A stretch of DNA of 64,000 bases from Yuukianura sp. NJ FZ-2021 (lineage: Eukaryota), in NCBI GenBank assembly GCA_046563655.1, contig CM102286.1, forward strand, positions 11,780,001 through 11,844,000, in the 5' to 3' direction. Below are positions 21,601-48,500 of the stretch, piece after piece (the stretch's first letter is position 1; the number at the start of each line of letters is the position of its first letter). Under the pieces are notes generated by a model. That model did not search any database, had not been told where the DNA came from, and saw only the letters and a list, made by a program, of their open reading frames with translations. The position numbers and the translations under genes were made by a program.

Positions 21601-24600
21601 TTTGACTTTCCTCAAGGAACAGCGTGTTCATTTAGAGAATATGGGATCCCATGACATCGTAGACGGAAGCCCACGTCTCACGTTGGGCCTTATCTGGACC
21701 ATTATTCTCCGTTTCCAGGTGAGATTTCACACTTTATGAGGCTTTTGAGCAGTTTCTGGCGGTGTGTGGGAACTTAACTTTCACATCACCTTTAGGAATT
21801 TCCGATGAAATGAAATGAAAATGGGGTAATGTATTACGTACTTTTTAGATTCAAGATATTACAATAGAAGAGGTGGATAACAAGGAAACCAAGTCGGCCA
21901 AGGACGCTCTGCTCCTGTGGTGTCAGATGAAGACAGCTGGATATGGGAATGTTAACATTCGGAACTTTACGACGTCCTGGAGAGATGGTCTGGCGTTTAA
22001 TGCAATAATTCACAAGCATCGACCTGACCTCATCAACTACGAGAAACTGGGTCATAATCCGATACACAATTTGAACAATGCTTTTAACGTGGCTGACTCG
22101 AAGCTTGGACTCACAAAACTGTTGGACGCTGAAGATGTGGCTGTGGAACAACCGGATGAGAAATCGATCATAACGTAATTCAAGAAATAGTTGTTGCTTT
22201 TGTGGGAGTATGTTTGCTGTTTTGCAGCGAAAGACTCATTATTGTGGTTTTCTAGGTATGTCGTCACTTACTATCATTACTTTTCCAAGTTGAAGCAAGA
22301 AACTGTCCAAGGAAAGCGTATTAGCAAGGTTAGTCTCGCAAAAAAAGAGAGAAGAAAAAACTAAATTCATCTCTTGGGAATTAAGTTCGTTTCTTTTTCC
22401 TAGAAAGGAAATGTTTTGTGGAGAAAATGCCAATAAAAAGTTTTTTTTTGTCTGGACATGCCATTAGGTCGTCGGAATTGCAATGGACAACGATCGAATG
22501 ATTCGGGAGTACGAGACGTTGACCTCAGACTTGTTGAAATGGATTGAAGTTACGATCGACCAATTGGGAGACAGGAATTTTGCCAACTCTCTTGTTGGCG
22601 TTCAACAGCAATTGACTCAATTCAATAACTACCGAACCGTAGAAAAACCACCCAAGTTTGATGAAAAAGGAAATCTGGAAGTTCTTCTTTTTACACTCCA
22701 ATCAAAGATGAGAGCAAACAACCAAAAACCATACACTCCAAAGGAAGGGAAGTTAATTTCGGATATTAACAAGGCCTGGGAACGACTTGAAAAGGCAGAG
22801 CATGAAAGAGAGTTGGCTCTTCGGGAGGAGTTGATTCGACAGGAGAAACTGGAACAACTCGCTGCTCGATTCAACCGAAAAGCAAGCATGCGTGAAACTT
22901 GGCTCAGTGAAAATCAACGGCTTGTATCTCAGGATAACTTTGGATATGATTTGCCTGCTGTGGAAGCTGCTGCTAAGAAGCATGAAGCAATCGAGACGGA
23001 TATCTTTGCTTATGAAGAACGCGTTTCAGCAGTGGTTTCTGTTGCACATGAATTGGAAGCTGAGAACTACCACGACATTGAAAGAATCAACTTGCGAAAG
23101 GAAAATGTGCTGCGACTCTGGGAGTATCTTCTGGAATTGTTGCGAGCAAGAAGACTCCGTTTGGAAGCGGCTCTTCAACTTCATCAAAGCTTTCAAGTAA
23201 GTTGTTGAGCAAAATTGTGTTTATCTGTCAACATTTTTTAACGTGATGTTTGTCTTTTTAGGAAATGCTGTACATACTGGATTCAATGGAAGAGATTAAA
23301 CTGCGACTTTTGTCTGATGACTACGGCAAGCATTTGATGGGTGTCGAAGACTTGCTCCAGAAGCACTCACTTGTTGAGGCAGACATCAATGTTCTTGGAG
23401 ACCGAGTCAAGTCTGTTGTACAAAATTCTCAACGTTTCATTGGAGAAGAACAAGAACCAGGAATTGAAGGATTCAAACCAGCTGATCCATCGGCTGTTCT
23501 CGAACGAGTGACGCAGTTGGAAGAAGCTTATGCTGAACTTGTGAAGCTCGCTGTGGAAAGAAGGAACCGATTGGAAGAAAGCAAGAAATTGTGGCAATTC
23601 TACTGGGACTCGGCAGAAGAAGAAAACTGGATCAAGGAGAAGGAAAATATTCTGTCACAGGGAGACATTGGTCATGATTTGACAACTGTGCATCTCCTAC
23701 TTGCCAAGCAGAAGGTAATTAGCACCGCTCGATTTAGAAACATTGGCGTAATTTTGTTTATGTTCTGTCTGACATTGGTAATTATTGTGTAGGCGTTGGA
23801 GACTGAAATTAACGCACATGAGCCGCAGTTGATGAGCGTTGTTAGCGTGGGGCAAGATTTGATTGACGAAGAGCAGTTTGGAGCAGAGAAAGTCCAAACA
23901 AGACTCCAAGAGATTATGGGATTGTGGCAAAACTTGCGAGATCGTGCGGAAAGCCGGAAGACAAGACTTACGGAGGCCGTTGATTACCATCAGGTAGACA
24001 AAAATTTAATTACAACAAGTTATTACTCAAGAGTGACATAGATTCTAATAAAACCGATGTGTTTGCGTGTCTATTTCCAGTTCTTCGCTGATGCCGATGA
24101 TGTGGACACTTGGATGCTGGATATGCTTCGCCTTGTATCAAGCGAAGATGTTGGTCGGGATGAAGCCAATGTCCTTTCTCTACTGAAGAAACACGATGAT
24201 GTCACTGAGGAATTGAAGAACTACGCCAGTACAATCGATGCTCTACATAAACAAGCTCAGGAACTTGGTGAACAAGATCGCGAACACCCTGATGTCGTTG
24301 AGCGATTGGCCAGCATTGATAGACGATACAAGGAACTCACTGAACTTGCCAAGTTGAGGAAGCAGCGACTCATGGATGCTCTTTCTTTGTACAAACTTTT
24401 GTCTGAATCGGAAGGAGTTGAGCAATGGGTTGCAGAGAAGGTGCGTTTATCTCTCCTGAACTTATTAAAACGTGTCCAAGATAGGGCAGCTTATTGATTC
24501 TTTTTTAATTTCAGGAACGAATGCTGCAAACCATGGTTCCAGCCAAGGATATCGAGGATGTCGAAATTCTCAAACACCGTTATGATGGATTCGAGAAGGA

Positions 24601-27600
24601 AATGAACTCCAATGCCTCACGAGTGGCAGTTGTCAACCAATTGGCTCGTCAGTTATTGCATGTGGAGCATCCAAACTCTGGAGAAATTGTGGCTCGCCAA
24701 AACATGTTGAACACCAAATGGACAGATTTACGAGACAAGGCAGAGGCAAAGCGAGATGAACTCAATTCGGCCCACGGTGTACAGACGTTCCATATTGAGT
24801 GCAGAGAAACAATTGCTTGGATTGAAGACAAGAAGAGAATTCTGGAGGAAACTGCCAACTTGGAAATGGATTTGACTGGAATCATGACGCTACAGGTAAA
24901 TCATAAAAAATGATGTAAAACTACGTTAATTTTTAAATTTGCAATGTTATTTCCAATTGCAGCGTCGTTTGTCTGGAATGGAACGAGATTTAGCAGCTAT
25001 CCAAGCCAAGCTAGATGCCCTTGAGAAAGAAGCTGAAAGAATTGGCGAAGATCATCCAGAGGAAGCTGCAGTTATCAATGAGCGTATTGATCAACTTCGA
25101 GCATCATGGGAGCAGTTGAATCAAATGGTAGGAAGTTGCGTGATGAAGCATTTTGTATGAGTTAGAAGTAGAAAATAATCTGTGTTTTGCCTATAGCTCA
25201 AGGATCGGGATGCTAAACTGGAAGAGGCGGGTGACCTTCACCGCTTCCTTCGCGACTTGGACCACTTCCAAGCCTGGCTTACAAAGACTCAAACGGAAAT
25301 TGCCAACGAAGATGAACCTGTCAGCCTTCAAGATGCAGAGAAATTGCTCACGCAGCACCAAAATATCAAGGAGGAGATTGAGAACTATGTGGACGACTAT
25401 GAGAAGATGATGGATTATGGCGAGCGAATATTTACTGTAAGAAGTCAAAAGTTGTGTCATGCCTTTTACTTCTTTTATGCAAAAAACTTTAACGTCTTTC
25501 TTTACTTGTCGTTTAGGAACCAGCCACTCAGGACGATCCACAATACATGTTCTTGCGAGAGAGACTCAAGGCACTCAAAGATGGATGGGAGGAACTACGA
25601 CAAATGTGGGATAATCGCCAGGAACTACTTTCACAGTCAATGAATCTGCAAATATTCATGAGAGATGCACGACAGGCTGAAGTTCTCCTTTCACAACAGG
25701 AAACCATTTTGGCCAAGGATGAAACTCCAGTGAGTATTTCACATTTTTGGAATAGAGTTTGGTGCGGCAGTTCAACTGACTTAAATTCTGACCTTGTTTT
25801 TAGTCCAACTTGGAGCAAGCGGAAAGTCTCATCAAGCGACATGAAGCTCTACTCACAACAATGGATGCCAACGATGAGAAGATTAACGGCGTCATTCAAT
25901 TCGGTACGGCTTTGCAAAACGATGGACACGGACAAGCCGATAAGATTGGCAAAAAGACGGACAGCATCAAAGAGCGTCGGGATGCCAACAAGAGGAAAGC
26001 TTTGGAACAAATGGAGAAACTGCGAGATCAGCTTCAATTGCACCAATTCCTCCAAGACTGCGAAGAACTTGAAGAATGGGTCCAAGAGAAGAGCATGATT
26101 GCACAGGATGAAACTTACAGGAGCGCTAAGACCGTTCACAGCAAATGGACTCGTCACCAAGCCTTCGAAGCTGAAATTGCATCAAATAAGGATCGGCTGA
26201 TTGCTATTGAAGAAGCTGCCAAAGGACTTCTCGATGAAAAACCAGAGTACGATCCATTTATTACACCGAAAGTCAACGAACTTGCTTCTCATTTCCGAGA
26301 ATTGGAAGAAAGCACCAAAGAAAAGGTATTGACACTGCAATTGTGCACTAATGGAGCTTACTTACTCATTTGTTTCGAATTTTAGGGTGAGCGATTGTTT
26401 GATGCCAATCGTCAAGTACTCTACGAACAAACTGTGGACGATATTGATGGCTGGATGAATGACTTGGAGAACCAGATTGAGAACGAAAATTATGAGCAAG
26501 TTGGAGACTTGGCATCAGTAAACATTTTGATGCAGAAACAACAGATGATCGAGACTCAAATGGCTGTAAAGGCAAGACAGGTCACGGAATTGGAAAGCCA
26601 GGCTAACCATCTCCAGCAAATGGACCCAGACAAGGGAGAGGAAATTGTGGCCAAGAAGTCAATTGTTGAGAATCGATTTGGAAAGCTTAAAGCGCCTTTG
26701 GAAGCAAGGTAACGATTTGCTCAGTAATGTTCTGTTTCGGCAGTTTGTAAAAACTCAACAAATTCACTCCGTTTTGTTACAAAGGAAACTCCAATTGCTG
26801 AAGAAGAAAGAAGCGTACCAATTCCGACGTGATGTTGAAGACGAGAAGCTGTGGATTGCCGAGAAGATGCCGCAAGCTACTTCTAAAGACTTTGGAAATA
26901 GCGTATGCAGTAGAATTTTAACAATCATATGGCATTATTCTTCGAAAGTTTATTAACCGTCTATTCACGATATTTGTTGTAATTATAGCTTTACAACGTT
27001 CACATTCTCAAGAAAAAGAACCAATCACTCCGAAATGAAATCGAACATCATGAGCCAAGAATTGACACTGTCATTGGAAATGGACTTAAGCTTATCAGTG
27101 AGGAGCATGAAGATTCCGAAGAGTTTGACCGCCTTTGCAATGAACTGAAACGTGACTGGGAGGAATTGAAAGATGCTGTTGACAACCGTCGTGAGAAGCT
27201 TCTCCAGTCCGAGAAGGCTCAGCAGTATCTGTTTGATGCTTCTGAGGCTGAGGCCTGGATGTCAGAACAAGAACTGTACATGATGTCAGAGGAACGCGGA
27301 AAAGATGAGATTTCAGCTCAGAATTTGATCAAGAAACACGAGGCGTTGGAGAATGGTACGTTTGGATTCTCATTGTAGAAACTTTTTTAAGGAAATTCTA
27401 CTCGATCCACTAAAAATATTAATTTTTGCAAAAGATGTTAGCGACTATGCAGATACCGTGAGAGAACTGGGGGAAACAGCAAGGCAGCTGATTATGCAAG
27501 AACATCCAGAGAGTGACAACATCGGAGTCAAACAATCCCAAGTAGACAAATTGTACGCTGGACTCACGGATTTGTCACTTGAGAGAAGATCCAAACTTGA

Positions 27601-30600
27601 GGAAGCCATGAAACTGTTTATGTTGAACCGTGAAGTTGATGACTTGGAACAATGGATTGCAGAACGAGAAGTTGTGGCTAGTTCGCATGAACTTGGACAG
27701 GATTACGACCATGTGACGATGTTGTTGGAGAGATTTAAGGAATTTGCTCGCGACACCGAGTCTATTGGAAATGAGAGAGTCACTGTGGTGAATGAAATAG
27801 CTGATGGACTCATTGCTTCCAAACATTCAGACGCAGCTACAATTGCTGAGTACAAGGATGGACTGAATGAAGCTTGGGCAGATCTTCTGGAATTGATTGA
27901 CACCAGAATGCAGATGCTAACGGCGTCTCGCGAACTCCATAAATTCTTCCATGATTGCAAGGACGTGCTGGGAAGAATTTCAGAGAAGTCCAACGCAGTT
28001 CCGGATGAAGTTGGACGTGATGCCAGTTCAGTATCGGCTCTTCAGCGAAAGCACATTCAATTTCTCCAGGATTTACAGACTCTCCAATCACAGGTACTGA
28101 CAAGCATCGGACTATTACTCTAAAATACTTTACCAGTTTGTCATTGGCAACTTAAAACTTTTTACACTAATACTTGTTTCTTTTGATTTAGGTCGAACAA
28201 ATTCAAGAAGACTCAAAGAAGTTGCAAGCAGCTTATGCTGGTGAAAAGGCCAAGGAAATTACCAACCGTGAAGCAGAAGTTGTCAATGCTTGGTTGAATC
28301 TTCAAAGTAATTTTTTTTGAAATGAAAGTTTTAAGGTTTTTGAACTATTTTTACATGGATCTGTTTTTGTTACCAGATAACTGCGAGGCCAGGAGAATGA
28401 AGTTGGGTGACACTGGAGACTTGTTCAAATTCTATATTATGGTTAGAACGCTGATGCTTTGGATGGATGATGTCATTATTCAAATGAATACGTCGGAGAA
28501 ACCACGGTAAAGAACCCAAAGCTGATTCTTACGCTTGAAGTGTCTCTTACACTGGTGGTTGTTGTTTTTGATTTAGTGACGTGAGCGGAGTGGAACTGCT
28601 GATGAATAATCATCAAAGTCTCAAGGCAGAAATTGACACGCGAGAGGATAACTTCTCTGCCTGCTTCCAACTTGGCAAGGAACTTCTCTCCAGACAGCAT
28701 TATGCTTCAGAAGAGGTCAGCAATTCTTAATTGAAAAAATTGAAAAACTAAAAACGGTGGAGGGATCTTTGCTAATGTACGCTTGAAATTGTCTGATTTA
28801 TGACGCTTATAGATCAAAGAAAAAATCAAAGGCCTCACTGCACAGAGAAATGCGATGTCACACAGATGGGAAGAGCGCTGGGAACACTTACAATTGAGTA
28901 AGGCGAACTCTGGCACAACTAGAGTGATGTTCTGAACTTATGACTAACGTTGTTGGCTTATTGTAGTTTTGGAGGTGTACCAGTTTGCCCGCGACGCAGC
29001 AGTTGCCGAGGCGTGGTTAGTTGCCCAGGAGCCGTATCTTCTGTAAGTAAATCCAAGAGTTCAAGTATTACTGTAAAATGTACGCAAAATCTGTAAAGTA
29101 CAAAGTCTGATGTTACGTTGTTCCATTTTTAAATGATTTGTGACTTTGTGCAGGAGCATGGAACTTGGTCACACAATTGATGAGGTCGAAAACCTAATCA
29201 AGAAGCACGAAGCATTCGAAAAGTCAGCCACTGCCCAAGAGGAGAGATTCACAGCGCTTGAGCGTCTTACGACGGTAGGTTTTTCTTCACACAGTAAATT
29301 CGTAGTTGCCATTTGTATATACGCTTAAATTCAAAGTTGTCAAAAAATTAGAGCTATCAGTATAGGTGCTGTCTTCTTTAACTTTCTTAATTTGATTTCT
29401 TTCGTTTCAATTTCTTTTTTCCTTTGATCTCTTCAAAATTTTAAGCTGGAATTACGAGAGCAAGCCAAGCGTCTAGGGCAAGCGGACAGTTTCGGTTTCT
29501 ATCCATACGAGACAATGGTGACTCGTTATACATTCCTTTTCTAATGAGTTTCGCTGCATTCATTAATTCGGCGGTTGATTTAATGCCAGTGCCATTGACT
29601 GAGCTCCTTCCAAGCTCATGATTTTTTCTCTTCTGTTTTCCATAACTCTGTTTTGTTTGTTTTTGCGGGCTCACTGTTTGTAAACATGCTAAGTGTTAAA
29701 GTGTTGATGAAAATGTTGGTAACATTCAGTGATTTTGTTGAACTAACCAATTTCTGATTTGGTTTCAGTTTGAGCTCCGAGATCGCGAGAGGATTCAGCG
29801 TGAAGAAGAAGAGCGCCGGCGTCAAGAAGAATTGGCCAAGAAGACACCACCACCAAAATCACCCGAGCAAGATCGTCCAGACGGATCCAGATCCCCAGAA
29901 CCCACCTCTGAAAAGGAAACTGTCAGTCAGCGTGAAGGTACGTTGCATAGCTACAGCTTGTTATCGTCGTTTTGCATGTTGTGTGTTGTGTTGTCCCTAA
30001 ATTATTAAGCTACAACTTCAGAAACTGCATGGCCTTTTTTTAAAAATCTTTTTGAAAACTTTTGAAATCTCATTTCTAACTCTTTTTTATTTCTTTGCAT
30101 GATCTTTATTCAATTCTCGAATGCTCAATCGCTTTAAATTCAGCTTCTCCGCCAGTTCCATCACAACATCAAAGTCAGAGTGAGACTCCTGGTCCAAGTC
30201 AAAGTCAAACCCCGCCAGTAACTCCAGGAAAGTCACCAGACAAAAGAAAGCCAGGTATGGTAATTTCTCCGCTGAGGGCTCTCCGTCCAATGCTCGTTTT
30301 AACCCTAAATTAACCCCACATATTTTTTCCACTTTACTTGATTTTCTTTTGATCTCAATTTAATTTTTGCATGCATGATTTCTAATCTAATCTCACATGT
30401 TATTTTATTTTTACTTTTTTTTTGCTTTTTTTTGGTGATGGCCACTTTCACTTTTTACTAACTCAGGATCATTTCGGTTGCCTTCTTTTTCTTCTTCATC
30501 TTCACCTAAAACACCAAAGCTTCCAAAATCTCCCTCTAAATCCACCAAAAGTAACAAAAGTGGCAGAAGCGTAGACTCCGAAGCTTATGGTGATGGCGCT

Positions 30601-32214
30601 GACGACGTTTTTGTTGAACAATGTGAGTGCATCCTTATTTTGGACGAAACAATCATCGTAGGAGTAATTAACAAAGTGTTGTTAATAGTTATCCTGCATA
30701 TGCAATTCGCGGTTGTGTTACTTCGGAATTTGGTGTAATTTGCTATTTGCTGGCTTTTTGGTAGTTTCGATGTCGGTTGCTTTGAGTTGCTTTGCTTCTA
30801 CTTTTGCTAAGAGAAATGGAATTCAGTAGAAATTCCCGGAGTGTATGTGCGAATGATTAAGAATCATTTAAATCAAATGGGGCTCAAAGGTCGGGGGGTT
30901 AGTGGAATAATATAAATATATAAATATAAAAAATCCGGTCAATCTCAATCTCATAGCGGAGGAGGCAGCTAAGGTATCAAGTCGATCCAGGTCAAAGTCA
31001 CCTTTCCGAAGTTTTCGATGGAAGAAGTCCAAATCTTCAACATTGGAGGCAATTCCAGGCGGTAGTGCCTCTGATGATGAGTCAAATATTCAGAAAATGA
31101 AAGGTAACGTGTTCTCAGTATTGATTTTTTTTAGGAGTCACCGCCAACTTTCTCTTTAATCTTCAAAGCGGTCCTGCTCCTTTCTTTCCCAATTTCCAAG
31201 TCTACCCCACTTGTAACGCTATTCTCCGTGTATTCGGTGAACTTAATTTGATTACGAATGGGTTTGGTGGGCTAATGATGGTTGGTAAAGGGAATTATGC
31301 TACGCTGGAACTCATTTCCGGAAGGGAATTGATTTAGGTACGATGGTAAATGGCAAGGCTTCTTACGGTTTTGAAATGCCGTGAATTTCACTGGTTTGTT
31401 TTACTAAATTACATAATGGCGGGCATGTTAATGCTTTCTGCATGTGCTAAACTGATCAGCACGCTTTTTGTAAAGTGACTAATTTTTGTGATGTTGATGT
31501 TGGTGATTTTTGTTCTAAATGTCTAATATGAGGTTGTTCTTAAATTGTTGTAGATCGACCTGGCCCGAGCGAGGAAGGTGTCTTGGAAAGTCTTTTGAGT
31601 AGGAAGCACGAGTGGGAGTCAACTACAAAGAAGGCATCTAATAGGTAATTTCAACTGTTTATGTAGAATAATACATTTTAAGAAGTTTTTTTTAAGAAGA
31701 AATATTTCGAAATTCCACAAACTGAATGTCTTTTTTTTTCGTCACAGGTCTTGGGACAAAGTGTACGTAGTCCTTCGTGGTAACACTTTACTGTTCTACA
31801 AAGATCAAAAGAACTTCAGGACTCAGAAAGAGGCGTACTTCAGAGGTGAGAATCCCAGTGACCTTCAAGGGGCTTCCGCCGAAGTTGCCGCTGACTATAC
31901 GAAGAAGAAGCACGTTTTCCGACTCAAGTAATTACAAAATGCGGAAACTTAATTTAATTTGATCCTGAAACTTTTTTGGTGTGGAGATTCGTCAATTGGA
32001 ACTTTTGTTTTCATGTAGGTTGGCAAGTGGCGGAGAGTTTTTATTCCAAGCAAAGGACGATGAAGAAGTAAATCAGTGGGTACGTGGAATTCAAGACGTG
32101 AGTCATGCGGAAGGTGCTGGATCATCGGCAGCATCCAGGGCTCAAACTCTTCCAGCCTCCAGTCAGAGAGAAGAGCCCAAGAAGAGAAGCTTCTTCACGC
32201 TGAAGAAGAAATAA
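18671..32214 (+). CDS. beta-Spec: Spectrin beta chain (conventional beta-spectrin): 2 CH domains, spectrin repeats, PH domain; ~30 exons
   Basis: Starts [13 protein letters not shown]...[35 protein letters not shown] domains include [16 protein letters not shown] and [17 protein letters not shown]. Spectrin repeats run from about 22468 to 29274. PH domain exons 31554-31644, 31748-31927 and 32019-32214 give [22 protein letters not shown]...[21 protein letters not shown]...[11 protein letters not shown]. The introns I checked are GT-AG and keep the frame. Confidence 0.98.
20554..20740 (+). CDS. beta-Spec: Putative alternative first coding exon of beta-spectrin
   Basis: ATG-initiated ORF ending CAA G|GTAATA (phase 1), the same phase as exon 1a (TCC G|GTACG). 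It therefore splices in frame to 21256 and gives ...[20 protein letters not shown], which parallels [15 protein letters not shown]. Confidence 0.65.
29446..29544 (+). CDS. beta-Spec: Putative alternative terminal (or mutually exclusive) exon of beta-spectrin, giving a PH-less isoform
   Basis: A pyrimidine tract plus AAG acceptor at 29445, in phase 0 after ...ERLTT|, reads [32 protein letters not shown]. Its start resembles the main exon at 29769 (FELRDRER). Confidence 0.55.
   Translation: MELREQAKRLGQADSFGFYPYETMVTRYTFLF
30144..31103 (+). CDS. beta-Spec: Three symmetric phase-1 cassette exons of beta-spectrin before the PH domain (30144-30254, 30467-30622, 30957-31103)
   Basis: Lengths are 111, 156 and 147 nt (all multiples of 3), each flanked by AG and GT. 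They encode S/P/K-rich peptides, including [23 protein letters not shown] branch point lies directly before 30467. Confidence 0.7.
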
Positions 32215-34924: not shown

Positions 34925-37900
34925 AACGGAACATCATTGTAGCCGCACAGTGTAGCCGCCGGCGGCCATCTTCGAGTGGCTACAATGGGTGGCTACGCTT
35001 GCAAAAGGCTCTAATAGTCTGCCCATGTTTTCAGATTTCTTCAAAATTTTGAAGGAATGTAGAATTTTTGGAAAATTATGAATCCAAATGATACGAGCAA
35101 CACCAATTGATTCATTTGTCTGGGGGTGGGGACGGGGAGGCAGAAACGGTTCTTGTAAATCTGGAATTTTAACATCTTCAAATGAAACTGCATCATTTGC
35201 ATTTGAATTTTTCGCGGGTTGTGACAAACTGCAAACAAAACGTCCGCAAATCCGGAAGACAAGGAACTTACTGGTGCTCTGGGAAACTGGTTTGGCAGCA
35301 GCACGAGTCTTCTGGTTTTGCGTAATTTTCGGCGATGGTATAGCCTTAATTCTAGTCCTAGAACTTGTATAGGCCTGGGCGCTTTTACTTTTAGAGAAAG
35401 CAGAACACCGTTCCAGAATCAATACTTTCCACGCATCTACAAATGCAATCGTCTAAAGTACTTTCACCAAGGTAAATTGAAGCGAGATTGAATACGATTC
35501 CACCTACGACATACCCGTTTCTCTCAATTTAGTTGGAAGGAACTTAAGCTATGTGTTTTATTTATGTTTGCCATTTCACGTGTTTGAAAAATATACATGT
35601 ATACTACTAACTAAGTTTTACATCTACATTTAATTTTTGGATAAGTCAATAAGTTATTCAGCTGGGAATGGCTTAATAACAAGTTTAGAAAGCGTGCCTC
35701 AGGAATACAAAACAGTGTGCTCGCCATATTCGTTTCAGAGTATGATACATCTCATGCTTTAAAAAATGGTTAGCGTTCTAAACATTTTACGAAAAGCGAA
35801 GCTGTTGTACTAGGTATGTTGATGTACTTTTATACCATAGGATTGGAAGTATGAATAGCAGTGTGAAGAAAACGATACTTGGTTACAAAACGCCATTTTT
35901 CGATACTTTCTCGTTTTTCATAGCAAAAGGGAATATGACTACTACAATCTTGTCATTTTTCACGTCTTCCGAATGTTGTGTCTGCTAATGTCTTGATATT
36001 CGAAAAGTGTTTTGAAAGGTTAGGGCGTTGAATGTTGATAGGAACGATGATGTGTCTAGCTTAATGTGCGAAGTGGATTACAAGAGCATATAGTGAAAGA
36101 ATGTTCTTAAGTAACGTTGCCCAGTACACTATTATTTTTATTACCCATCTACGGGTTCTGACTCCTTTCGGAAGAACAGGAGCTGGAGATTCCAATGTTC
36201 CTGGATGTTGGAATACGGTTATAACAACCGTGGAAAAAGAAGCGGGTAGCTATAATACAGAAATGTTTGCCAGAAGGAGAAGTCTCGAAAGTGTTATAAC
36301 CTTCCTAGAAAGTACATGAAAAGGCGACTAGGATTCTAACAGTTCCTCTAGACATGCTCCCAAGGTTCGCGGATGGAGAAAACGGAGAAAGCGGCAGGGA
36401 GATCCACCTTGGCAAAGAGTTGCTCCTGCCACAATTCCAGCAGCCTCCAACGATCCCACGGTGGCTCAGTTCCATTCAGCCGCCCCACCAAAGTGCTCCA
36501 TCATCAAAAATCAGCTCAAACTCAAAGGCTTGTCACCAATTAGTGACTTTCGGAGTCCTTGTGTTTTCCACGCCCTTGTCATACAATGCTTTATCTTCCC
36601 ACGGAATCCGGAAATCGATCTTCCTGGAAATCTGCAGCTGAAGCCAAATTGAAAAACACCATCGTCATCAGAGCTCTAACGAACAAAACACTTCAGCCAA
36701 GCCAACGCAGTTAGTAAATCACTTAAATTTCCATTAAATTCTCCCGCAGAATTTTCAACTAACAAAATGCCAAATAATACGTCAAGTGATACTGATCTAA
36801 ATTGCAAGGTCAATCATTCAACCATGCTCTGCTGATGATCATCATTAGATCGTATTCAGCAGCAAAAGCAGTTGGATTTAGAGTGCTTCGTTGGAACTTC
36901 CATTGTAATAGTTCCCACACAATGGAAAAATGCTTACTCCAAACTTCGTACGCCACGCTACGCCTCACTAGCGAATACCAAATTGCAAAAGAAAAAAAAA
37001 CCTACGTGTGAATAATTAAAAAAGTAAGGGAGGCTCCCGGTGTGTTTTGAAGTGTGGATTTTCTAGTGGCGACGCGGAAAGTGAAAAACTTGGTTAGTTT
37101 TAATGAAGACGGATCATTTGTGGTTACGAAAATTTGGGATTTTTAACATTATCAACGGAAAAATTTCGTCTTTACCGTGAACATGCAGAAAGAAAGTCAC
37201 ATTCGTTGGTGTTTTCGCATTACTGCATACAGTTCTATCTTGAATCATCAATAAATTCAAGGTTGCTGAACAAAGAAATTATGTTTCTTTAGAATGATTT
37301 TTTTCTTATAACAAGCAATAACTCGGCTACTGAGGTCTTTAAGCACATTTTTCGAAAATGAGTTCACAATTTGAACGTAAAAAAGGTCCGGAAGATCAAA
37401 ATTGTTAAGCCAATAGACATTATTAGACGTTGGTTAAACAGAATTCGTTGAAAAAATCTGTCTAATGAACGTTTAATTGAAACTGGTTTTTTAATTATTA
37501 GTCAATCTAATTAAAAATTAATTAATTAATTAACTATTGGTTCCAAATTGGTTCCACTATTTTGTTTTTTGGGGGGATTTTTTTTAAAGATCGAGTTATT
37601 GCCTTAACCTGTTAAAGAAAAACTCGTTGTGAAGCCACCTTGAATAAATTGGTTGGTTGTTCTGTTCCTGTGATCAATACAGGGAGCTCATTCCCAAACT
37701 AGGCGTACACTTACATTTGAACATTCACGTCGCTGGGTTTTGGATTGTGAAAGTTATATTATAAGAACATGAACACTTCTCCAGCCCCTGCCCTTCCGTC
37801 ACTATCCACTTTCACCAGTTCCAAGTACAAGTGAAAGTTCTGAATAACCTTTAGGCCACTCTTCAGCTCCAATACAAAAACAGTGAAAGTTTGAATAGGT

Positions 37901-38370
37901 GAACTGAATACGAAAACAGGAAGAGGTTTTATACGGTTTCTGGAGGAGGAGATTCTTTAAGTTCATAGTACAACAGCATATTACCGACTTGGAATATAAA
38001 TGGTGCTGGTTCCTGGTTAAAACCGTGGTGGAGCTCCCTAAACTAACTCCCTACGACTTTTAGATTGTCCACTGGAACTGATTTGCAGCAGTACGTTCTA
38101 ACTAAAAGGAAAGCATTCGATTTACCCAAGCATCGCATCCGTGCGCTCACCGTTGAGAAAGTGCTGCTCAGAAAATCGATTCCTTCGTTTCCTCTACATT
38201 CCCGTGGCAAATTCTGAGAAAAAAAAAGTAATTAATGGCCTATCTACTCAGGACGAGGAGAAAAGTGGTGGTCGTAGTTGACAGTAGTTCGTGTTGTTGG
38301 TGGACCTAAAGAAGAACAATCGTTTATGGGTAAATTCAAACTATTTGGGTCAGGATCATCAGAAAAGAGA

Positions 38371-41300
38371 ATGGGTTGTGCTGGAAGTAAGGATGAGAGA
38401 GCAGGAGATGGGAGCGGTGGTGGGGCAAATAAAAGTGGTGATCGAAACAATACTGCTGGTGGACCGTCCGGAAGTACTTCGACTGCAGCATATGCTGATC
38501 CCAGGATTCCAATGACTGCTAAACAAAAGTACAGTATTGTTGCGTCATGGAAAGGTATTAGTCGAGCTATTGAGCCCACTGGGATCTGCATGTTTGTCAA
38601 GTAAGTCAAATCAATCGACATCAAAAATATACACCGTATTTCCTCGCATATAAAACACACGTATAAAACCTGTTCAATACACACTTTCCGCACCAATTTC
38701 ATTTGCCAAGCGCCAGAACCACGGAATTTCACTAAGACGCGTATTATAGGCGAGAAAGTACGGTAAAATGTGTATAATATTTCTGCTTTATCTACAAATA
38801 CTAAGCTAAAATAAGTAATCATCCGGCGATAGCCTTAAGCAGTGCTAACAAAGATGTGGAAACTAGATATTTGTCGGTAGCTTTTCTCCGAAAGATAACC
38901 TTTGAGTTATTCCCGCCTGATAAACTAGAAAAAAATTGAAATTAAGCAGCGTTTACACAGGTATCCACCTTTTACTTTCTCCTGCAACTTTCACTATCAT
39001 CACCGCTTAAACCAGCGTAATGACCCACTCCAAATCCAAATATCATAAAATATTCAATGACTCACTCCTTTCTTTCCCACTAGCAAACCACATACCTACT
39101 TTCCGTCGTAATTTTCGAGTGGAAGGGAGAACGTGAACGTGAGGTCGAATCCGGAGAAAGGGCAACAGGTCAACAAACTCCTATAAGTTTTAGTAGTAGT
39201 TAGTATAAAAAGCTCCGCGAATAACTCGTTAGTGTTAGTTTCCAAATCATGCAAAGTGGTATTTTGAAACCATTTGACATGGGTACCGCAAGTGTTGACG
39301 AGTGTTCCACTTCTACGGTCATGTGAAATGTTTCCACAAGTATTTGAACAAAGATATGCGCGTGGTTTGTACCTCCCGATATTTAAAAAAATGGAGAAGC
39401 AAGCATAGTATTACAAGTTTGGGAGTCCATTTCGCGTAAAGTGTATACGTTTATTGATCAGGTTTGTTGGTAATATTTTCTGAGTCTGACGTTTGATAAT
39501 CGTATGATGACAAACGATGCAAACTGGCTTCATTGATCAAATTGTGTGAGCGGAAATTATATCAAATTTCATTAGAGCTTATTAATAAAATTTCGCCTAG
39601 AGCTTACATGAACATATAGCCCTTTTCGACGGCTGGCTCTTGTTCTTTCAGTCGTAAAATGAAATACTCGGAGATGATTAATTGAGTAGTAAAAGATTGG
39701 AAGATCACGATACAGATACGATACAACTCAATTTGTACCGCATCATATCGAAAATTTGTTTCTACTGCTATGCTGCGGAACTTAACTGAACATTAACGAT
39801 TGCTTAAATAATGTAGCGAGGCAGAAAGGCATGCGTAACTTTGGCTTCGGAATTTTTGAATAGACGCGGGACAGAATAAATTTTTAATAAACGCGTGTTA
39901 TGAGCGTTATTTTTACGACGCAACGCAGCAAATGAGAAACGAGGGCGGATATAGAAGAATTAATCGTGCGGAATTTCCGAAATAAACATCGATTAAGTTC
40001 AAAACACTATCAATGACCGAAAACCAGTTGATTGAACAAAACCAAGATACGGAAACAATGAGAAGAGGTGGGTGCAGACAAGGAAGTTTTGAACTATAGT
40101 ATTTGCTGTTCAATTTGTTCTAATTGAAGGAAACCCTCAACCTACTAATTAAAACGATTAATTTTTAAGGAATAACAAATATGTCGCAAATTTTCGCAGT
40201 GAGCGCCCCTATCCCTCGTCGACAAAGTATTTTCCCGAATTAATCATTAATTTTCGACTATGAAACCTAGTTGATAGAAAGGTGCTGTTCACGTTATAAT
40301 TTGTTAAAATAATTCTGCCAATTAATACAGGGAGGGACAAAAATAAAACAAAGAATCACTCCGTCATTGTGCCATTTCAAATATTTTTGCAAAACCGTAG
40401 CCGTCAATTGTTATGAAACCATAAAACCTGTTTATTTCGTCACCCAGAAGTGCAAGATTGTGTAACATTGTTAATTAATATTAATTAATAATTTTAAGTA
40501 AGTCAGTGATGTCACAAATATAAGTAGTATATAAATTAAATTAAGTAACAAAGGATTGGTTATGCCGGCGTAATTAACCTTCGTAATGAGTCCTGTCATA
40601 CAAAAATGATCCTCGAGAAGCTTATTTAATTCAATGAGAGATCTATTCTTTCTTTTTAGATTGTTCGAAGAAAATGCCGAGCTCCTGGACTTATTTGAAA
40701 AATTCCAAAGCCTAAAGACTCGTCAACTTCAAGAAGAAAGTACAGAGCTGGCAGAACATGCCACAATGGTCATGGGCACGCTGGACCAGGCCATTCGTTC
40801 ATTAGACAATCCAGACGGTTTCGTCCAACAGTTGGAGCGCGTCGGCTCCACGCATAGAAGGATACAAGGATTCAATCCTGACTTTTTTTGGGTAAGGAAT
40901 TACTTTTACTAAAAGTATTAGCATTTACATCAATAGTTTATATTATACTTATAATCAATGCTCATTTTTAAACAAAAATAACATATTCAACATGAAAATA
41001 TGACCCGGCGCTCTGTGCACCGAACAAACATGCAAAAGTTCAAACGAACTTTCAATTCCTTACCAACATAAGTCTGGGTACATGAAACACTCATGCATAT
41101 TAATTACTCTCTAAGAAAAATATAAATCACTCACGTTCGCCCCGAATCCGCCTGGCTAGCATAATGTCCTTGGGAGTTAGGGTAACTCTACCCCTGTGAA
41201 GTGTGAGCATGTACGAATCTTCAAACAATCCGATGAGATAGTACTCCGCAGCGATCTGTAAAGCTTCAAGTGATGACCGTTTGTATCTGATGTCTGGCAC

Positions 41301-42673
41301 ACGCAAGTCCTGTGTAATTTCGCGTACCAACCGGGCAAACGGTCCTCTCAGAATAAGAAGGTCTGTGGTGCTTTGGTAATGCTTGATCTCAAGAAGAGCC
41401 CGACTGTCCGGTTTGTAGCGACCTGAGCCCCCTCTGGTCTTTGATTTATTCTTCTCGTTTTCCTTGGCAGTAGAACGTCGGCTGTCTTTCCTCTTAGCAG
41501 TACCTTGAAGTCGTGGTGTTACGGTTGTCCTCCTCGGAGATCCTCTTGCAGTAGCGGGACGAGATTCGGAAGCGGGTGCGTTTCCTCGTGTCGGCGTCTT
41601 AGGGGGTGATCGTTCCGGTTCTTTAGACTTCCGTCCACGTCTACTTTCTGTGGTTTTCCTTCTTGGAGGCGATCTAGCCGGACTTTCATCATCTGAGCTC
41701 GATGGAGACCCGGACGTATCCGCATATCCAGATTGTGCAGTTCGGACCATGTTTAACTAGTAGCGATGTAGAAAATTGTTTTACAGAGAAGGGAGGCTAA
41801 AATTAAAAAAAAAGCATTAATTAGCAAATGGCAATCAGGTGATACCATACTTCAATAGTTACATATTCCCCCCAGTAACTTCGTTAACATAAGACAACCA
41901 AAGGCCCGGTCCTTTCCCGTCCATCCATCCATCCTTAAGGAGCGCAAGCGTAATACTGGCTTAGGTACTACGCTGAATACCCTCACATCGTCAAATCAAT
42001 CCGATTTTTTAAGGTAGGACTGAAAAGCGATTAAGGGAAACGAGAAGTTCATGTCTTGTTAATCAAAATACTCAAACTACAAATCTTACCCAATCGGTTT
42101 CGTTCGGAGGATTTCTTGAATCTTCATGTACCCAATCCCGAATAGCTTGTCTTGTGCTTCGTACTGTGACGTTTCACTACTTAAATTTGAATGTAGTAAA
42201 TAGTAGTTAACGAAAAGATAATTAACTAATAAATCAACGAAACATAAACAACGAGAACGAGGATTTCCCGACACCAATAATGAATGAATGAATGACGAAG
42301 GCCGAAAATGGAAAGGATTTCATGCCCGCCTTTACAAAAAAAAAAATAAATAAGAATCTCTTCCCTCTCTTTATGAATTTGGCGCTAAATTTTCCGAAAG
42401 CGTCGTCTCATTATTATAAATATACCGTGCACTTATTTTTAGCACCTAGATGCATTTTTCTTAACTTTTAATTAACTTTAACCGTGTTTGAGTAATTAAT
42501 CATACTGATGTCGGCATTTGAATTTGTATTTTCAGAAAATTGAGAAACCCTTCCTATCCGCCGTGAAGACGACACTAGAAGACCGTTACACGGAAAACAT
42601 AGAGTCTATTTACAAAATTGTGATTCGACTAATAATAGAAAGCCTCGTCAAGGGCTACAATGGAAGCACTTAA
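38371..42673 (+). CDS. Globin X-like (GbXL / neuroglobin-like) N-acylated globin, 3 coding exons
   Basis: Exons 38371-38600, 40660-40891 and 42536-42673 give MGCAGSK...DPRIPMTAKQKYSIVASWKGISRAIEPTGICMFVK|LFEENAELLDLFEKF...ELAEHATMVM...VGSTHRRIQGFNPDFFW|KIEKPFLSAV...YKIVIRLIIESLVKGYNGST*. CD1 Phe, E7 His and F8 His are present, and the introns sit at the ancestral B12.2 and G7.0 positions. MGC is a myristoylation/palmitoylation motif. An upstream in-frame ATG lies at 38326. Confidence 0.92.
41127..41750 (-). CDS. CenH3: Centromeric histone H3 variant (CenH3/CENP-A), nested antisense in globin intron 2
   Basis: 207 aa intronless ORF with an H3-type histone fold (RYKPDSRALLEIKHYQSTTDLLILRGPFARLVREITQD...GLFEDSYMLTLHRGRVTLTPKDIMLARRIRGERE). 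CenH3 hallmarks versus canonical H3: Q68 to A, F84 to Y, T107 to S, loop 1 one residue longer (DLRVPDIR vs DFKTDLR), and a ~110 aa R/S/K/P-rich tail that does not align to H3. A probable 5'UTR intron spans 41797-42089. Confidence 0.88.
   Translation of the reverse strand: MVRTAQSGYADTSGSPSSSDDESPARSPPRRKTTESRRGRKSKEPERSPPKTPTRGNAPASESRPATARGSPRRTTVTPRLQGTAKRKDSRRSTAKENEKNKSKTRGGSGRYKPDSRALLEIKHYQSTTDLLILRGPFARLVREITQDLRVPDIRYKRSSLEALQIAAEYYLIGLFEDSYMLTLHRGRVTLTPKDIMLARRIRGERE
42378..42385. promoter_or_regulatory. E2F consensus site (TTTGGCGC) in the putative CenH3 promoter
   Basis: Exact TTTSSCGC match about 290 bp upstream (minus-strand sense) of the putative CenH3 5'UTR splice donor. This fits the cell-cycle regulation known for CENP-A genes. 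Confidence 0.45.
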
Positions 42674-45552
42674 TTAAGCCCTACAGTGCCAGTGTCACTT
42701 TTACAGAATATTCTTAACACTTATCGTCTAATCTTTGACATCCAACGTCAACTCTAGCCCTAAACGTCCATAACGAAGAAACTCCGAAAGATAGGCACAC
42801 TTTTACAGTATGACTAACATAAGTTAAATCTGAAGATTAATCATAATTAGTAAATTACTGTACGTACTATGCATTTTCTTAAACTTACAATCCGTAAAAT
42901 CAGCATCATCCTCCCATTTACTTTTGATTACTATAAGAAATTGGTCCATTGAGTATATGGCAAAAACAATTATTGTGGATCATAAGTTACGTTTAGGAGC
43001 ACAAATCTGCAGTTTGGCCAAAAGGTTCCCGAATGTTTTGCACCCTTGGAGTTATTTAAGAGCTCCATGCAGTTAATTGTTCCTCAATTATTTTGATTTT
43101 GAGGAAGTAAAAGCAATTCTTGTTTAGAAATTCAAACATTGTATTCGACTTTGACCGAAAACGAGAATTATTTTAAAGTCCACGTTAAGTAATGGATGTT
43201 CGGAGTTGAAGAAAATACGTAAGCCATAATGTAATCGTTTTGAAAAATCGCCTAAGTTCCCACGATAAAATTCTAAATCCGTTTTTTTAACTTTCTCGTT
43301 ATACACGTCATTATTGATGAGATTTGGTTAAAACAAATTCATTAACGAGGGCTAGTAACATAAATCTGTGATGTAGGTCTGTCTAAACAAAAAAAAAGTT
43401 AAGTAGATTTAACTAAATTCCAATTAAATAAGTTAGGATTCCTTAACATATTTACATATTGTCCACACCTCCGTCTACAGTTACTGATTTGCCATAGCTA
43501 AAAGTACCTTTGAAAGTACTCTGGAGAAAATCCTGCAGCAACTCATTGAAAATATTGGATGCTTTGAGTGCTGGGTTAACCTATACTGGTATTTTGTTGA
43601 AAAATTACAGTAAAAATTAAAACTAACTACACCAAAATAATCTTACCCATAGAAATTGTAATAGCAATTATCTGCAACCTGAGATTTACGTTTAAACCGA
43701 CTCTAAACGTTTTCAAAGCATCTCTTTTTCAGTTCCGAATTTCATTTTCTACCCAATTGGGAATGAAATTTAAGTTGACGTTCCGGAAGATACGTTTCAG
43801 TTCAAGTGAAAGTGAAGACATCATAAAATCAATCCAATACAAAGGGAAAGCGTCGTCCATCCGCCAAATCCCCCAATTGTTCTTGCCTCCCTCGACGCCA
43901 TTCAAGTCCTCCCCAGAATGAATAATGCTGAAAAAAAGTCTAAAGAAAATTCAAAATTGTACAATTTTGTCCCGAACATGACGAAACTGCGGAAACTTTA
44001 ACAAGGAAGAACAAAAAACATCATGTCAAGAATTTTAAGACTGAATGAAAATTACCTTGTTAGGATCACCAAGCGCAAAAATTCGGCAGTTCTTGTGTTC
44101 CAAAGTTCATCCAAAATCCGAAAAATGTGCTAAAACCTAAGAACTTAAAAACATAATGAAGGAAAAAGTTAAGCTATGAAAGGTTTGATGTAAATGAAAA
44201 AAAGCCAAAGACATGTTTAGCTCTGTGAAATCAGCAAAATATGTTCTGGATCTTCACAAAACATGTACAAGTTGAATGGAGCCTAAATTTAATAAAAAAC
44301 TGTTTGGTTAATTACATTCTGCTCTCAGTTAAAATGATTAACTCAGAGTCCTACTTTTAGCAAGACTTTTACTTTAGAAGGTTTTTAGGGTTGCTAGAAT
44401 TCGGTTTTATTGTAATTTGGCCTAAGTGCGTGGGTTTTTTAAAAAGAGCTCTTAAGAGCAACTCTCCTTAATTGAGTGGGAATTAATTTATAAAATATAA
44501 ATGTCGAAAGGGAATTACACTTTGCACTTTTAAGTGGGACTTTCACTTTTCCTTTCCCTTTGAACCCGCTGCCAAGAAACATTAACGATTCGGCAAACGG
44601 AGAGACACAGGAAACGAGAATCTGTCAACCAGGGAATACTTCCTACTCGTCTTCATAGTGTGTCTCACACTAACGTAAAAACCGAAAAAAAAATCTTTCC
44701 TAACGTTCCAACACGAAAACTTTAACATTTAAGTTCTCGCCCCCTTTTGTTACTTTCTCTCACAATACTTTTGCCCTTAGAACATAAATCATCATCACCA
44801 TCATCTTCTTTTTCAACGTCATCATCTTCCTTCTCAGCAACTTTCACTGTCGCGCCATGCCGCCACTGCGCCAAAACCCCCTCCTCTTCCCCAGATTGAA
44901 CTTTACATAAAAAAAAAGTGCTACGGCTCAGATTACTTTACGCCAGAATTTCCAGTAGTAGCTAGCGGATCCGGATGGCGTCTTAACATAAAAAAATAAA
45001 AGTCTTTTCTAAACGCTCACACCACTTAATCCGCAATATAACATGTTAAAAATACCCATTCTGAATTACATTCTAAACCCTCTCTTATTATAATACAATA
45101 TTCTAATAACAAATATAAGTTTTGTTACATACCCCTTAATTTAACAGGTTTCCGTACCATAGCTGAATGGACAGCTGAATTCTTTATAATTGCAGTTAAA
45201 TTTGCTAATCAAAATGCACCAATACTTGATATTTACGTTCACTTAACCTACCTTTTCAAACTTAGACTTAATCTACAAATTAACTTTTAACAAACTTCAT
45301 TTTAAAACCTACCTTTCGTCACAACCTTAATAGCTAAGAGGAATGGAGCGACATAATATTTTATACTGAATTGACATTTCTAAATCCTAAGTTATTTCTT
45401 TGCTGGTGGGAGACATGTCGCGCATAACTCCAATAAATAAACTAAAAAATCTCGAGTTAACACTTTCTAAAAGAATTATTGATCATTTGGCCTACAGCTT
45501 ATTTAGATTCGCGCTGATCTCATCATACAGCCTTATTTCCATAATCTTTTCC

Positions 45553-48500
45553 TTAAGGTTTGGGATTCAAGATATCCTTGAGAATTGAATTACTCCTATC
45601 TGCCTGATTCAGTACGGGTAGTGACATGGAGATTTGCGGCATACTTCTACTTCCCACACTTTCTTCTGAAGCAGTCGCAGGACTTTCTCTGCCTGGTGTG
45701 CCTTCAGACGGCGTCATCATAGCCGAAGATGGAGAACTCGAACCCTGAGAGTAGAAAAAAGTAAAATCAAATTGAGATTGACAGTGACATTAACTTTTTA
45801 ATGAAATCAAGGAAGCACTTTTAGCTGTTCATTAACTAACAGTTAATTAGTTCATTATTAGTTCATTTTTTCGACTTTCACCTGTCCTTCAAATCAGTTT
45901 TAAAACGTTATTAAATTACTTTCGAAAAAGTTTCCAAAATAAAAGACGTTTTCAGAATTTCCGAGATTCGCTGACACTGCGTAGCTGAGTTAGCTCAAAC
46001 CAGAGCCTTTTGGTTCAGCTTTCAACTTAAAAACTTACTTGAGAATTTCTTGTTACTTCATCAACACTCATTCGCAGTTCTACTTTTGGCTTTGACTCCT
46101 TTTCCAGAAATTGAATGAAGGCTTCAGACAGGGACTGAATAGAAAAACAAGACAATCAACTCCAACTTCCAACAACACTCAAATTAAAAGTTAGGATTTC
46201 AATTATCCTTTACCTGTTTTTCAGCTGTAGCAGTCGACGTCCTTCGTCCAATAGGCCACAATGAAAATCCTGATTCAAGTCCTGTCTTTTGTCGATCCTC
46301 TCTATTGAAGTCGAGGACTGTCGCCAGGAGACGAAGTACTTCGCTTCTCTTGTCGTCAGGAGTCGAGAAATAGCCAACGACAAGATTCTTGATTAAATAT
46401 CTAGGAATACAAAAAAAGGAAGTTGGTCTTTTCAGTTTTCAAAGAAAAAATTCCTCCATTTCTGGTATTAGATTCACAGCGAACATGTTACAACCGTCAC
46501 AACAGGAATGCGGTGACAGAAGTGATGACAAGGTAGACGGTAGTCATATAATAATAATCCGAAATTCGGGAAATCTTAGACGTGCAGAGTATATTGATCA
46601 ATCACAAAAGCATTACAATGTTCTGTCACATCCAACGGAATGACAAAAGGATTCCTCCAAAAGAGTACCAAAAATCACCTTTTCCCTACAACGTTGGAGA
46701 AATGCGTGGCTGGATTACCTACAGAGTTAACATCCACAAATTTTAGTAAAAGGTGAAAGTACTTTCTACAAAGATGTCAAAAAGATGCTGCTGAAACTGC
46801 AACTATTAATCACTCTTTTTGACTATAATCAATTTAATTTCGAAAGTGTAGCCCAACCTCCTTCCAGAATTCAAACCACGTCATCTGAAATTTGAACTCT
46901 GACAAGTACCAATTTCGAGTGGAACACAGCAGCAGTACATTCGGTTTTTTTGACCAATCTGCTTCTGCAGTAGCAAGAGTGGATTTAGAACAAGTCTTTT
47001 CCGAGATCCCACATTTGATAGGCATTTTGGTTTTAACTCTTCCACTTTCATAGCAATTTAATATCTTGGTTCAAAATCCCTAGGGATTTCTTCCAGGCCC
47101 CAATTTCCAGCACTACAAAGCATCCGCGTCAACCATCATCCTACCTTTTACTCTCTTCCTAATGCAAATGCTTTACATTTTCTACTTCAACAAGACCAAC
47201 TTCCGTAATATCACTTCGGAAGTTAGGCTGCATGGAGAAATACGGGAGAGAAAATGGCAAATCAAAATTCATCAAGGACAAACCACTTCTAGATAGTTGA
47301 GAGGCGCTTTGAAGCGTTTAGCCAACCGGAAACCGTTTCCACAGTGCCAAACCAATTCCAGAAGGTAACAACTTTTTCCTTCCAACAAACAGCGACTCTT
47401 CCCACTTCAGAGGCGGAGACTAACGGCAGGCTGCTAATTCGAAAACTTCTGAAAACTACAAAGTCGCGGACACCCTCAGTCCTTAAACTTCTTTTGAAAA
47501 AAAGTTCCAAAGCACTCCTGCGGAGACACAATTTCACTTTCTTCCTGTTCAACAAAAGACCAAACATTGCTTTCCATTTTCCATCAATTTACGACACTTT
47601 CATTCTTCATTTCTTTTTCCAACAGATTCTAGATCGTATTGATCAGGTTGTCAAAAAGTGTATAAATTTTAAAAATAAAAGAAACGTGTTTCCGACAACT
47701 TCAAAAGCGAAGATTGCTAAGAATGCATAAAGCGTGCAAGCTTAACTTAACCTAACAAAAATGTTAGCCTTTGTACGACACAAGGTTACAAAACATGCTC
47801 TAAACAACATAACTTTAGATTCTCATAGTTGAACAAAGTTTAAAACGACCGAAACCAAGTGGACAAACGCCTTGTTATACGTTTTGAACAAGAAAAAGAT
47901 TGCCGAACAGAAGCTAACGTTGAGTTTTCCAAGCGTTGAGGGATCCAAAAATCAAAAAAGTTGATCGTTTATTCTAAGCGTGTAGTGTAGCCCAAAAATA
48001 TACGCAAATTCCCCAAAGACTTTCTTTCTTCTTTTTTTTTTTTTTATAAAGGTGCACGTTACAATTTTTGTACCGTAAGAAAAACATGGACTTATATACT
48101 TCAAACTTTATTTCATTTCGGCTCCATCGTCTATCTCATCTCTGATCCCACTTTCTCCTTGGGATTGAAAAAAGAAGAAGGACTAGAGCAGTTTCTCTTT
48201 TTCTTCTTTAAAAAAACAAGAATCGAAAAACTTTTCCCATGTCATGCGTGTAGGTTGAAAAATCTTTGAGGTTTCACTTGACTTTCACTTTCTAAACGAG
48301 GCCACCCCTGCTACGGCGGATCAAAAAAGTAACGTGTACTGCCTTAAACTTTTCCATTTTCAAAAAAAAGCTTCCCAAAGCCCTCCAGAGGAGCAGGAAA
48401 GCTATGTGAAATCCTAATACAAAAAAAAATACAAAAGAAGAGAAAGAGAAGACAAAAGGGAAGTTGCAGCGGAGATGATGCGGAAGCTCCGCTTTCTTCA

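Follow-up and report, generated by a model that had tools for sequence, protein, structure and literature searches.

What kind of histone is encoded on the opposite strand within an intron of a springtail globin gene, and does its position there matter? The locus lies in a stretch of 64,000 nucleotides (nt), here called the window, from Yuukianura sp. NJ FZ-2021 (contig CM102286.1 of assembly GCA_046563655.1, positions 11,780,001 to 11,844,000; coordinates below are those of the window unless a contig is named). The source organism is a springtail (Collembola), hence no insect in the narrow meaning of the word. An intronless coding sequence (CDS) on the minus strand (41127-41750; 207 amino acids (aa) plus stop, protein P0001) sits within the second intron of the globin gene, at position G7.0 (40892-42535, plus strand; 1644 nt, phase 0, GT..AG). 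The intron starts with GTAAGG at 40892 and ends with TTCAG at 42535. It leaves 785 nt upstream and 235 nt downstream of the CDS, all of it enclosed, and an in-frame stop codon lies two codons upstream of the histone ATG. We consider it probable from the sequence comparisons below that the gene is a springtail CenH3, the centromeric form of histone H3 also known as CENP-A, that an intronic promoter of its own drives it, and that its nesting is neutral and frozen. The original prediction for this locus had proposed a complete, intronless CenH3-like CDS antisense within the G7.0 intron. The open reading frame, the Pfam match and the H3-variant residues bear this out, and the coordinates it gave for the intron, the reading frame and the splice and promoter motifs all proved exact on re-reading.

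P0001 is a histone of the H3 type. It matches the Pfam Histone family (PF00125) with an expectation value (E) of 1.7e-28 (99.8 bits; cut-off 26.4) and canonical H3 chains in the PDB at E ~1e-29, far above chance. PDB sequences at E <=0.001 number 176, and the 60 best of these are all H3-type, one of them an H3.1/CENP-A chimera. P0001 is the only H3-fold locus detected by tblastn within the window. A histone 3' stem-loop is absent, with no Rfam family matched within 36000-46000 at E up to 1, which fits the expectation for a replication-independent H3 variant. In a protein atlas the nearest cluster to P0001 is arthropod 'H3.3 type 2', at 0.92, which we treat as a lead only. The locus is also represented in Logan DNA contigs from two runs, X1 and X2, which possibly derive from the assembly's own sample. 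One contig (run X2, record 11; 608 nt) corresponds to 40653-41256 and reaches from globin exon 2 into the 3' portion of the histone CDS; a second (run X1, record 6; 732 nt) corresponds to 41026-41757 and contains the entire histone CDS with one difference. A third run, X3, has no depth across 41480-41847, to which we attach no weight. Four CDS variants are listed among the Logan contigs (two synonymous and two Arg-to-Lys), with no frameshift or stop.

Two proteins stand above the canonical H3 background in a search of 5.8 billion clustered proteins. P0002 (180 aa; 49% identity over 95% of P0001, E 2.8e-44) is encoded by L001, a metagenome contig of 8473 nt from a divergent relative, and P0003 (182 aa) is 61% identical over 57% of P0001 (E 2.8e-36). 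The same two came first in a profile search of 1.84 billion representatives, multi-copy H3 fusions aside, and the exact P0001 protein has no match in a 15-billion-protein collection. We refer to P0001, P0002 and P0003 as the springtail-type proteins. The fold of P0003 is 67% and 64% identical to those of the other two, and P0003 is missing the tail motif GYADTS that they contain. Residues 20-55 of P0003 form an internal direct repeat in the tail (KPSREKSHDVTQKSPQK / RHREKSHDLTQKSPKK); either its N terminus is mispredicted or the tails have been rebuilt through repeat expansion. L002 and L003 gave further matches, at 34%. Allacma fusca has a 140-aa H3 variant (P0114) whose start is canonical and whose tail is altered (KSTTPFVYNQLATK); its fold is 87.5% identical to that of H3. 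We read it as a separate, mildly divergent H3 variant unrelated to the CenH3-like family.

To P0001 we applied the features by which insect CenH3s have been recognized, as quoted by Drinnenberg et al. 2014 (PMC4359364, available text): a divergent N-terminal tail, a longer loop 1, absence of H3 residues Q69, F85 and T118, and a separate phylogenetic grouping. The N-terminal tail (residues 1-111; 41418-41750, minus strand) is basic, with an isoelectric point of 11.6, and rich in Arg, Ser, Thr and Pro. In alignments its ~110 residues are unlike the H3 tail except for the first, MVRTAQ, and the ARTKQTARKS motif is absent. Near its start the tail bears the motif GYADTSGSP (residues 8-16; 41703-41729, minus strand), which is conserved with L001 and falls within the sole part of the CDS that blastn can align to that contig (80.8% over 52 nt). 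A related tail motif, SFADTSS, occurs in P0263, one of the divergent H3 variants gathered for comparison, and the pattern [GS][YF]ADTS is common to P0263, P0001 and P0002.

The histone-fold domain (residues 112-207; 41130-41417, minus strand), delimited from HMMER and MAFFT alignments, is 52-58% identical to canonical H3. Loop 1 is one residue longer than that of H3 (DLRVPDIRY versus DFKT-DLRF), and the extra residue is present in all three springtail-type proteins. All three have also lost H3 Q68, which is replaced by A139 in P0001 and by Ser in L001, and H3 F84, replaced by Y156 in P0001; in P0001, H3 T107 is replaced by S179. The alpha2-alpha3 half of the fold (residues 160-207; 41130-41273, minus strand) contains CENP-A-like residues (LFEDsYmLTLHrGRVTLtPKD). 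Among the 60 PDB sequences listed for this half, the best 10 comprise 8 CENP-A sequences and 2 chimeras of H3 with the CENP-A targeting domain, at 57.3-59.1 bits.

The springtail-type trio is phylogenetically apart from H3 and H3.3. In a tree of 35 rows, comprising hand-picked divergent H3 variants and canonical H3 (P0333 was dropped for having no anchor), P0001, P0002 and P0003 form a clade (support 100/98) whose stem measures 0.66 changes per column, where canonical H3 branch lengths are 0-0.003. In a tree of 34 rows, from which five rows including P0003 were dropped, P0001 joins the L001 protein with support of 100/99. The grouping with canonical H3 that the original prediction had named as evidence against itself is not what the trees give. 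Existing names add little to this placement. Among the 29 divergent H3 variants looked up, one is called 'cnp1' (Exaiptasia), one 'CSE4' (Cardiosporidium) and one, from Perkinsus, 'histone H3, putative'; two carry JGI labels ('histone H3' and 'histone H3/H4'), and those from Caligus, Eukaryota sp. GEM-RC1 and Allacma are uninformative. A profile built from six CenH3-like proteins gave at least 120 rows (P0392-P0511; ~350 bits, 274-431 aa), with no springtail protein among those listed, and from their roughly doubled scores we take these gene models to contain at least two H3 folds each. Automatic names such as 'histone H3-like centromeric protein CSE4' are attached to many of them; names of this sort are no evidence of CenH3 identity.

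The arrangement seen in the window recurs in the second species. Read in the orientation of the histone, L001 has the histone CDS at 574-1116 and, ~120 nt downstream on the opposite strand, a globin exon ending ...DFFW|GT. Beyond this first piece come the rest of the central exon and then exon 1 (MGCTGSK...). The order and orientation of the histone and of globin exons 1 and 2 are thus alike in the window and L001, and the antisense position beside the G7.0 donor is conserved. A related species had been suggested as the place to look for the same nesting, and L001 supplies an ortholog antisense beside the same globin exons. In L001 a further phase-0 intron of 130 nt splits the globin between TLDQ and AIRS (E17/E18; L001 1339-1468, minus strand). 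The window gene lacks it, and this gain or loss occurred in a class of globins whose structure has been described as very stable.

The two species have diverged deeply, and unevenly along the locus. We give the raw proportions of nonsynonymous (pN) and synonymous (pS) differences, as pS is past the saturation limit for a corrected ratio of nonsynonymous to synonymous rates (dN/dS). For the globin, pN is 0.076 and pS 0.605, with 88% aa identity; for the histone fold, pN is 0.174 and pS 0.892 (saturated), with 75% identity; for the aligned part of the histone tail, pN is 0.49 and pS 0.91, with 38% identity. The histone evolves faster than its host globin, and its tail much faster still. The low pN of the fold beside a saturated pS shows that the histone gene is under purifying selection; a dN/dS near 1, the mark of a pseudogene that the original prediction had set as a ground for abandoning it, is not seen (pN/pS ~0.2 in the fold). 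The shared position together with the saturated synonymous divergence means that the arrangement predates the split of the two lineages and is not a recent retrocopy. It is old and stable, and common to at least two divergent species. Hence the recent relocation or retroposition that had been entertained for this gene is unlikely, its ortholog in L001 having the same place and orientation.

Several observations weigh against a CenH3 lodged in this intron. P0001 keeps the threonine equivalent to H3 T118 (T190, in RVTL), so that two of the three diagnostic residues are absent; its CenH3-like extension of loop 1, a single residue, appears only small; its C terminus, GERE, is H3-like; and for the alphaN-alpha1-loop 1 half of the fold, H3 accounts for 59 of the 60 PDB sequences listed, the exception being a Cse4 at rank 35. 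The best H3 match to the alpha2-alpha3 half scores 53.4 bits, which leaves CENP-A a margin of just 4-6 bits. The rows of the trees were picked by hand; the nearest outside row, P0263, is weakly joined to the springtail-type proteins (96/74 in the 34-row tree, 88/38 in the 35-row tree), and grouping with the automatically named CenH3s of Exaiptasia and Cardiosporidium is left unsettled. Finally, the last globin exon is not in the 573 nt upstream of the histone in L001, where the contig ends. Enclosure within the intron is accordingly seen in the window alone, and for L001 we infer it because the globin needs its last exon.

The first four of these features would also suit a divergent, non-centromeric H3 variant, such as one that packages germline or sperm chromatin, with the real CenH3 encoded elsewhere in the genome. 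Yet P0114 of Allacma is 87.5% identical to H3 in its fold against 58% for P0001, and apart from CenH3 the H3 variants of animals are not known to depart far from H3 in this domain. The alpha2-alpha3 half of P0001 is CENP-A-like, and the ortholog combines a constrained fold with a fast tail, which is the usual pattern for CenH3. Nor did the searches of 5.8 and 1.84 billion proteins yield any other related divergent H3 family. We therefore regard a non-centromeric role as unlikely.

Compatible with a CenH3 identity is a narrower proposal, that the gene is one of at least two CenH3 paralogs with divided roles in soma and germline, like those described for the Cid paralogs of Drosophila, and that the globin intron is where this copy was fixed. 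Flies are known to have duplicated CenH3 (PMC8200288, in the text available), and P0003, which is distant and without the GYADTS motif, could be a paralog rather than the ortholog of a third species. The window contains no second copy in its 64 kb, however, and the protein searches show no two copies from one source. A division of labour of this kind seems to us quite improbable.

If P0001 is a CenH3, it would replace H3 in centromeric nucleosomes. Loop 1 and alpha2 of its fold would mark it for a dedicated chaperone, and its fast-evolving tail would help to recruit the kinetochore. The gene would form an independent transcription unit, antisense in the G7.0 intron and served by an intronic promoter, and its 3' end would run up to the donor of globin exon 2.

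A putative intron of 293 nt in the 5' untranslated region (UTR; 41797-42089, minus strand) has a GG|GTAAG donor (GT at 42089-42088), a polypyrimidine tract and a TAG acceptor, with a branch-like TGCTAAT ~30 nt upstream of the acceptor AG ending at 41797. Donor, acceptor and branch point are all present as the original prediction described them, and the intron is plausible, the splice itself being a putative reading. A 35-nt indel polymorphism at 41913-41949, seen as a deletion allele in Logan contigs of X1 and X2, lies inside this putative intron and fits non-coding sequence. L001 likewise has a T-rich tract followed by CAG, 73 nt upstream of its histone ATG. Further upstream, ~290 nt from the putative donor, is an E2F-like palindrome, TTTGGCGCTAAA (42378-42389, no strand assigned), with the E2F 8-mer TTTGGCGC at 42378-42385. 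The predicted E2F consensus at 42378 is thus present, but at a frequency expected by chance: TTTSGCGC occurs 3 times in the window versus 3.11 expected, and 64 of 100 shuffles reach 3. No TTTSGCGC was seen by eye in the 573 nt upstream of the histone in L001.

At the other end, the probable 3' UTR (40892-41126, minus strand) extends 235 nt up to the globin donor. It contains no AATAAA or ATTAAA between 40892 and 41126, only the variants AATATA/TATAAA (40944/40942) and AGTAAA (40910); L001 has an AATAAA ~24 nt before the edge of the globin exon. In both species the transcript of the histone probably stops at the edge of the antisense globin exon or slightly inside it, and in the window its last few bases may overlap globin exon 2.

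The host is a globin of three exons. Exon 1 (38371-38600, plus strand) runs from an MGCAGSK start to a B12.2-like, phase-2 boundary (AA|GTAAGT). Exon 2 (40660-40891, plus strand), preceded by the acceptor ttctttttag, covers helices B to G6, with the distal His in EHATMV, and ends in TTT TTT TGG (FFW). On its own this central exon matches Pfam Globin (PF00042) with E 3.2e-11 (44.2 bits; cut-off 22). Exon 3 (42536-42673, plus strand) opens with AAA ATT GAG and encodes KIEKPFLSAV...GYNGST plus stop; by itself (45 aa) it has no Pfam match. The intron phases are 2 after CMFV-K and 0 after FFW, and the central exon is unbroken in the window. Arthropod GbXL globins have three exons, introns at B12.2 and G7.0 with none at E10.2, and an MGC start, unlike GbX (PMC7457136, in the text available). 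The GbXL-type host that had been predicted fits Prothmann et al. 2020 in both its three-exon B12.2/G7.0 structure and its MGC at the second ATG; the assignment is made on gene structure and the MGC motif.

The MGCAGSK of the window is conserved as MGCTGSK in L001. An in-frame ATG at 38326 (plus strand) precedes MGC by 15 codons (MGKFKLFGSGSSEKR; 38326-38370, and ~2887-2931 on the minus strand of L001). The alignment block spanning this upstream ATG has 4 differences between the window and L001, 2 synonymous and 2 replacement, and the stretch is better conserved than the globin coding sequence that follows it. The context of the ATG at 38326 is weak (T at -3), that of the ATG at 38371 strong (A at -3, G at +4). 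The upstream ATG could be an alternative start that buries the acylation motif, or a conserved element of the 5' UTR; if that ATG is used, MGC would be internal. The predicted membrane anchoring of the globin by acylation thus keeps its conserved MGC motif and becomes less certain given the conserved upstream ATG.

Does the nesting itself have a function? Transcriptional interference could in principle separate expression of the histone in cycling cells from that of the globin in post-mitotic, neural ones, as the original prediction suggested. GbXL is reported to be expressed mainly in the brain in a midge and the honeybee (PMC7457136, available text). Two divergent species share the arrangement, and in both the 3' end of the histone must coincide with the exon-2 donor or fall no more than a few tens of bases from it. 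A nested gene would be expected to stay in place in any case, however, because moving out would need a rare rearrangement, and arthropod genomes contain many nested antisense genes for which no interference is known. Non-coding and promoter sequence is also unconserved between the window and L001, where only chance-level matches of 7-14 nt are found. A regulatory role for the nesting is hence quite unlikely in our view, and the more elaborate form of the idea, in which a CenH3 antisense in a neural GbXL, with its poly(A) abutting the exon-2 donor, would turn convergent transcription into a switch between proliferation and the post-mitotic state, is very unlikely. The simplest reading is of one gene nested neutrally within another, with no regulatory purpose.

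A decaying retrocopy or pseudogene, which the intronless CDS within an intron and the lack of a canonical AATAAA in the window copy might suggest, is strongly disfavoured and in our judgement extremely unlikely: the reading frames are intact in the window, L001 and P0003, the fold is constrained (pN/pS ~0.2 with pS saturated), no disabling variant occurs among the Logan contigs and the position is conserved.

The wider neighbourhood contains four other features. A homolog of the E2F-associated phosphoprotein lies at 553-1596 (plus strand; Pfam Eapp_C, E 1.6e-44). A CNH-domain gene at 10400-13800 (minus strand) looks Vam6/Vps39-like by eye, with a weak Pfam match (E 3.5e-4) below the cut-off. 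Beta-spectrin occupies 21000-32000 (plus strand), and a 246-aa exon of it shares 94% identity with Orchesella cincta and <=89% with every other named organism among the matches listed, which places the window in a springtail that is not O. cincta itself. A reading frame of 274 codons at 57833-58657 (minus strand) has no Pfam match. Loose-ended Logan contigs at roughly doubled depth pile up at 38720-38900, in globin intron 1, and at 42950-43300, downstream of the globin; these are probably dispersed repeats.

The locus offers a candidate CenH3 for Collembola, early-branching hexapods which we take to be monocentric. In chromosome-level springtail assemblies, centromere mapping by chromatin immunoprecipitation (ChIP) or cleavage under targets and tagmentation (CUT&Tag) would usually set out from such a candidate, which would also extend the account of CenH3 loss and holocentricity in insects to the base of the hexapods. 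Nesting in GbXL would also serve as a syntenic landmark for a fast-evolving CenH3 in springtails where sequence search by itself could fall short and where intronic genes such as this nested histone could escape annotation pipelines. The arrangement had been thought undescribed, and the literature search agrees: it brought up neither a CenH3 lying inside an intron of a globin, nor CENP-A as an intronic nested gene, nor a springtail CenH3, with subscription journals and genome annotations outside its reach. Springtails are not mentioned in the available text of PMC4359364, nor does Collembola occur in that of PMC7457136.

Set beside human CENP-A (3nqj, 3an2 and 3nqu), P0001 shares an H3-type fold, a long N-terminal tail unrelated to that of H3, a longer loop 1 and the loss of Q68 and F84. 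Its alpha2-L2-alpha3 residues (LFEDAYLLTLHAGRVTLFPKD) fit CENP-A better than H3, and it likewise has a fast tail and a constrained fold. It differs from CENP-A in its H3-like GERE end, its T118, an alphaN-alpha1 region nearer to H3 and a tail motif of its own, GYADTSGSP. The diagnostic criteria used for the CenH3s of Diptera, Hymenoptera and Coleoptera are applicable to P0001 as well (PMC4359364, available text).

The globin of the window has the same exon/intron plan as arthropod GbXL and, if the ATG at 38371 is its start, the same N-terminal MGC, with Gly2 for myristoylation and Cys3 for palmitoylation (PMC7457136, available text). It likewise evolves slowly, as its 88% identity to the L001 globin shows. 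It departs from that class in the conserved in-frame ATG 15 codons before MGC and, in L001, in an extra E-helix intron that lies between E17 and E18 and not at E10.2.

The CDS of Drosophila cid is intronless, like that of P0001. The Cid genes of Drosophila have moved and duplicated, whereas the springtail location is stable between species. As with other nested antisense genes of arthropods, a larger host gene has within one of its introns a small intronless gene of opposite orientation, which has long been retained there. A CenH3 nested in this way is a known kind of gene in a common type of arrangement, a useful annotation that will not surprise a specialist.

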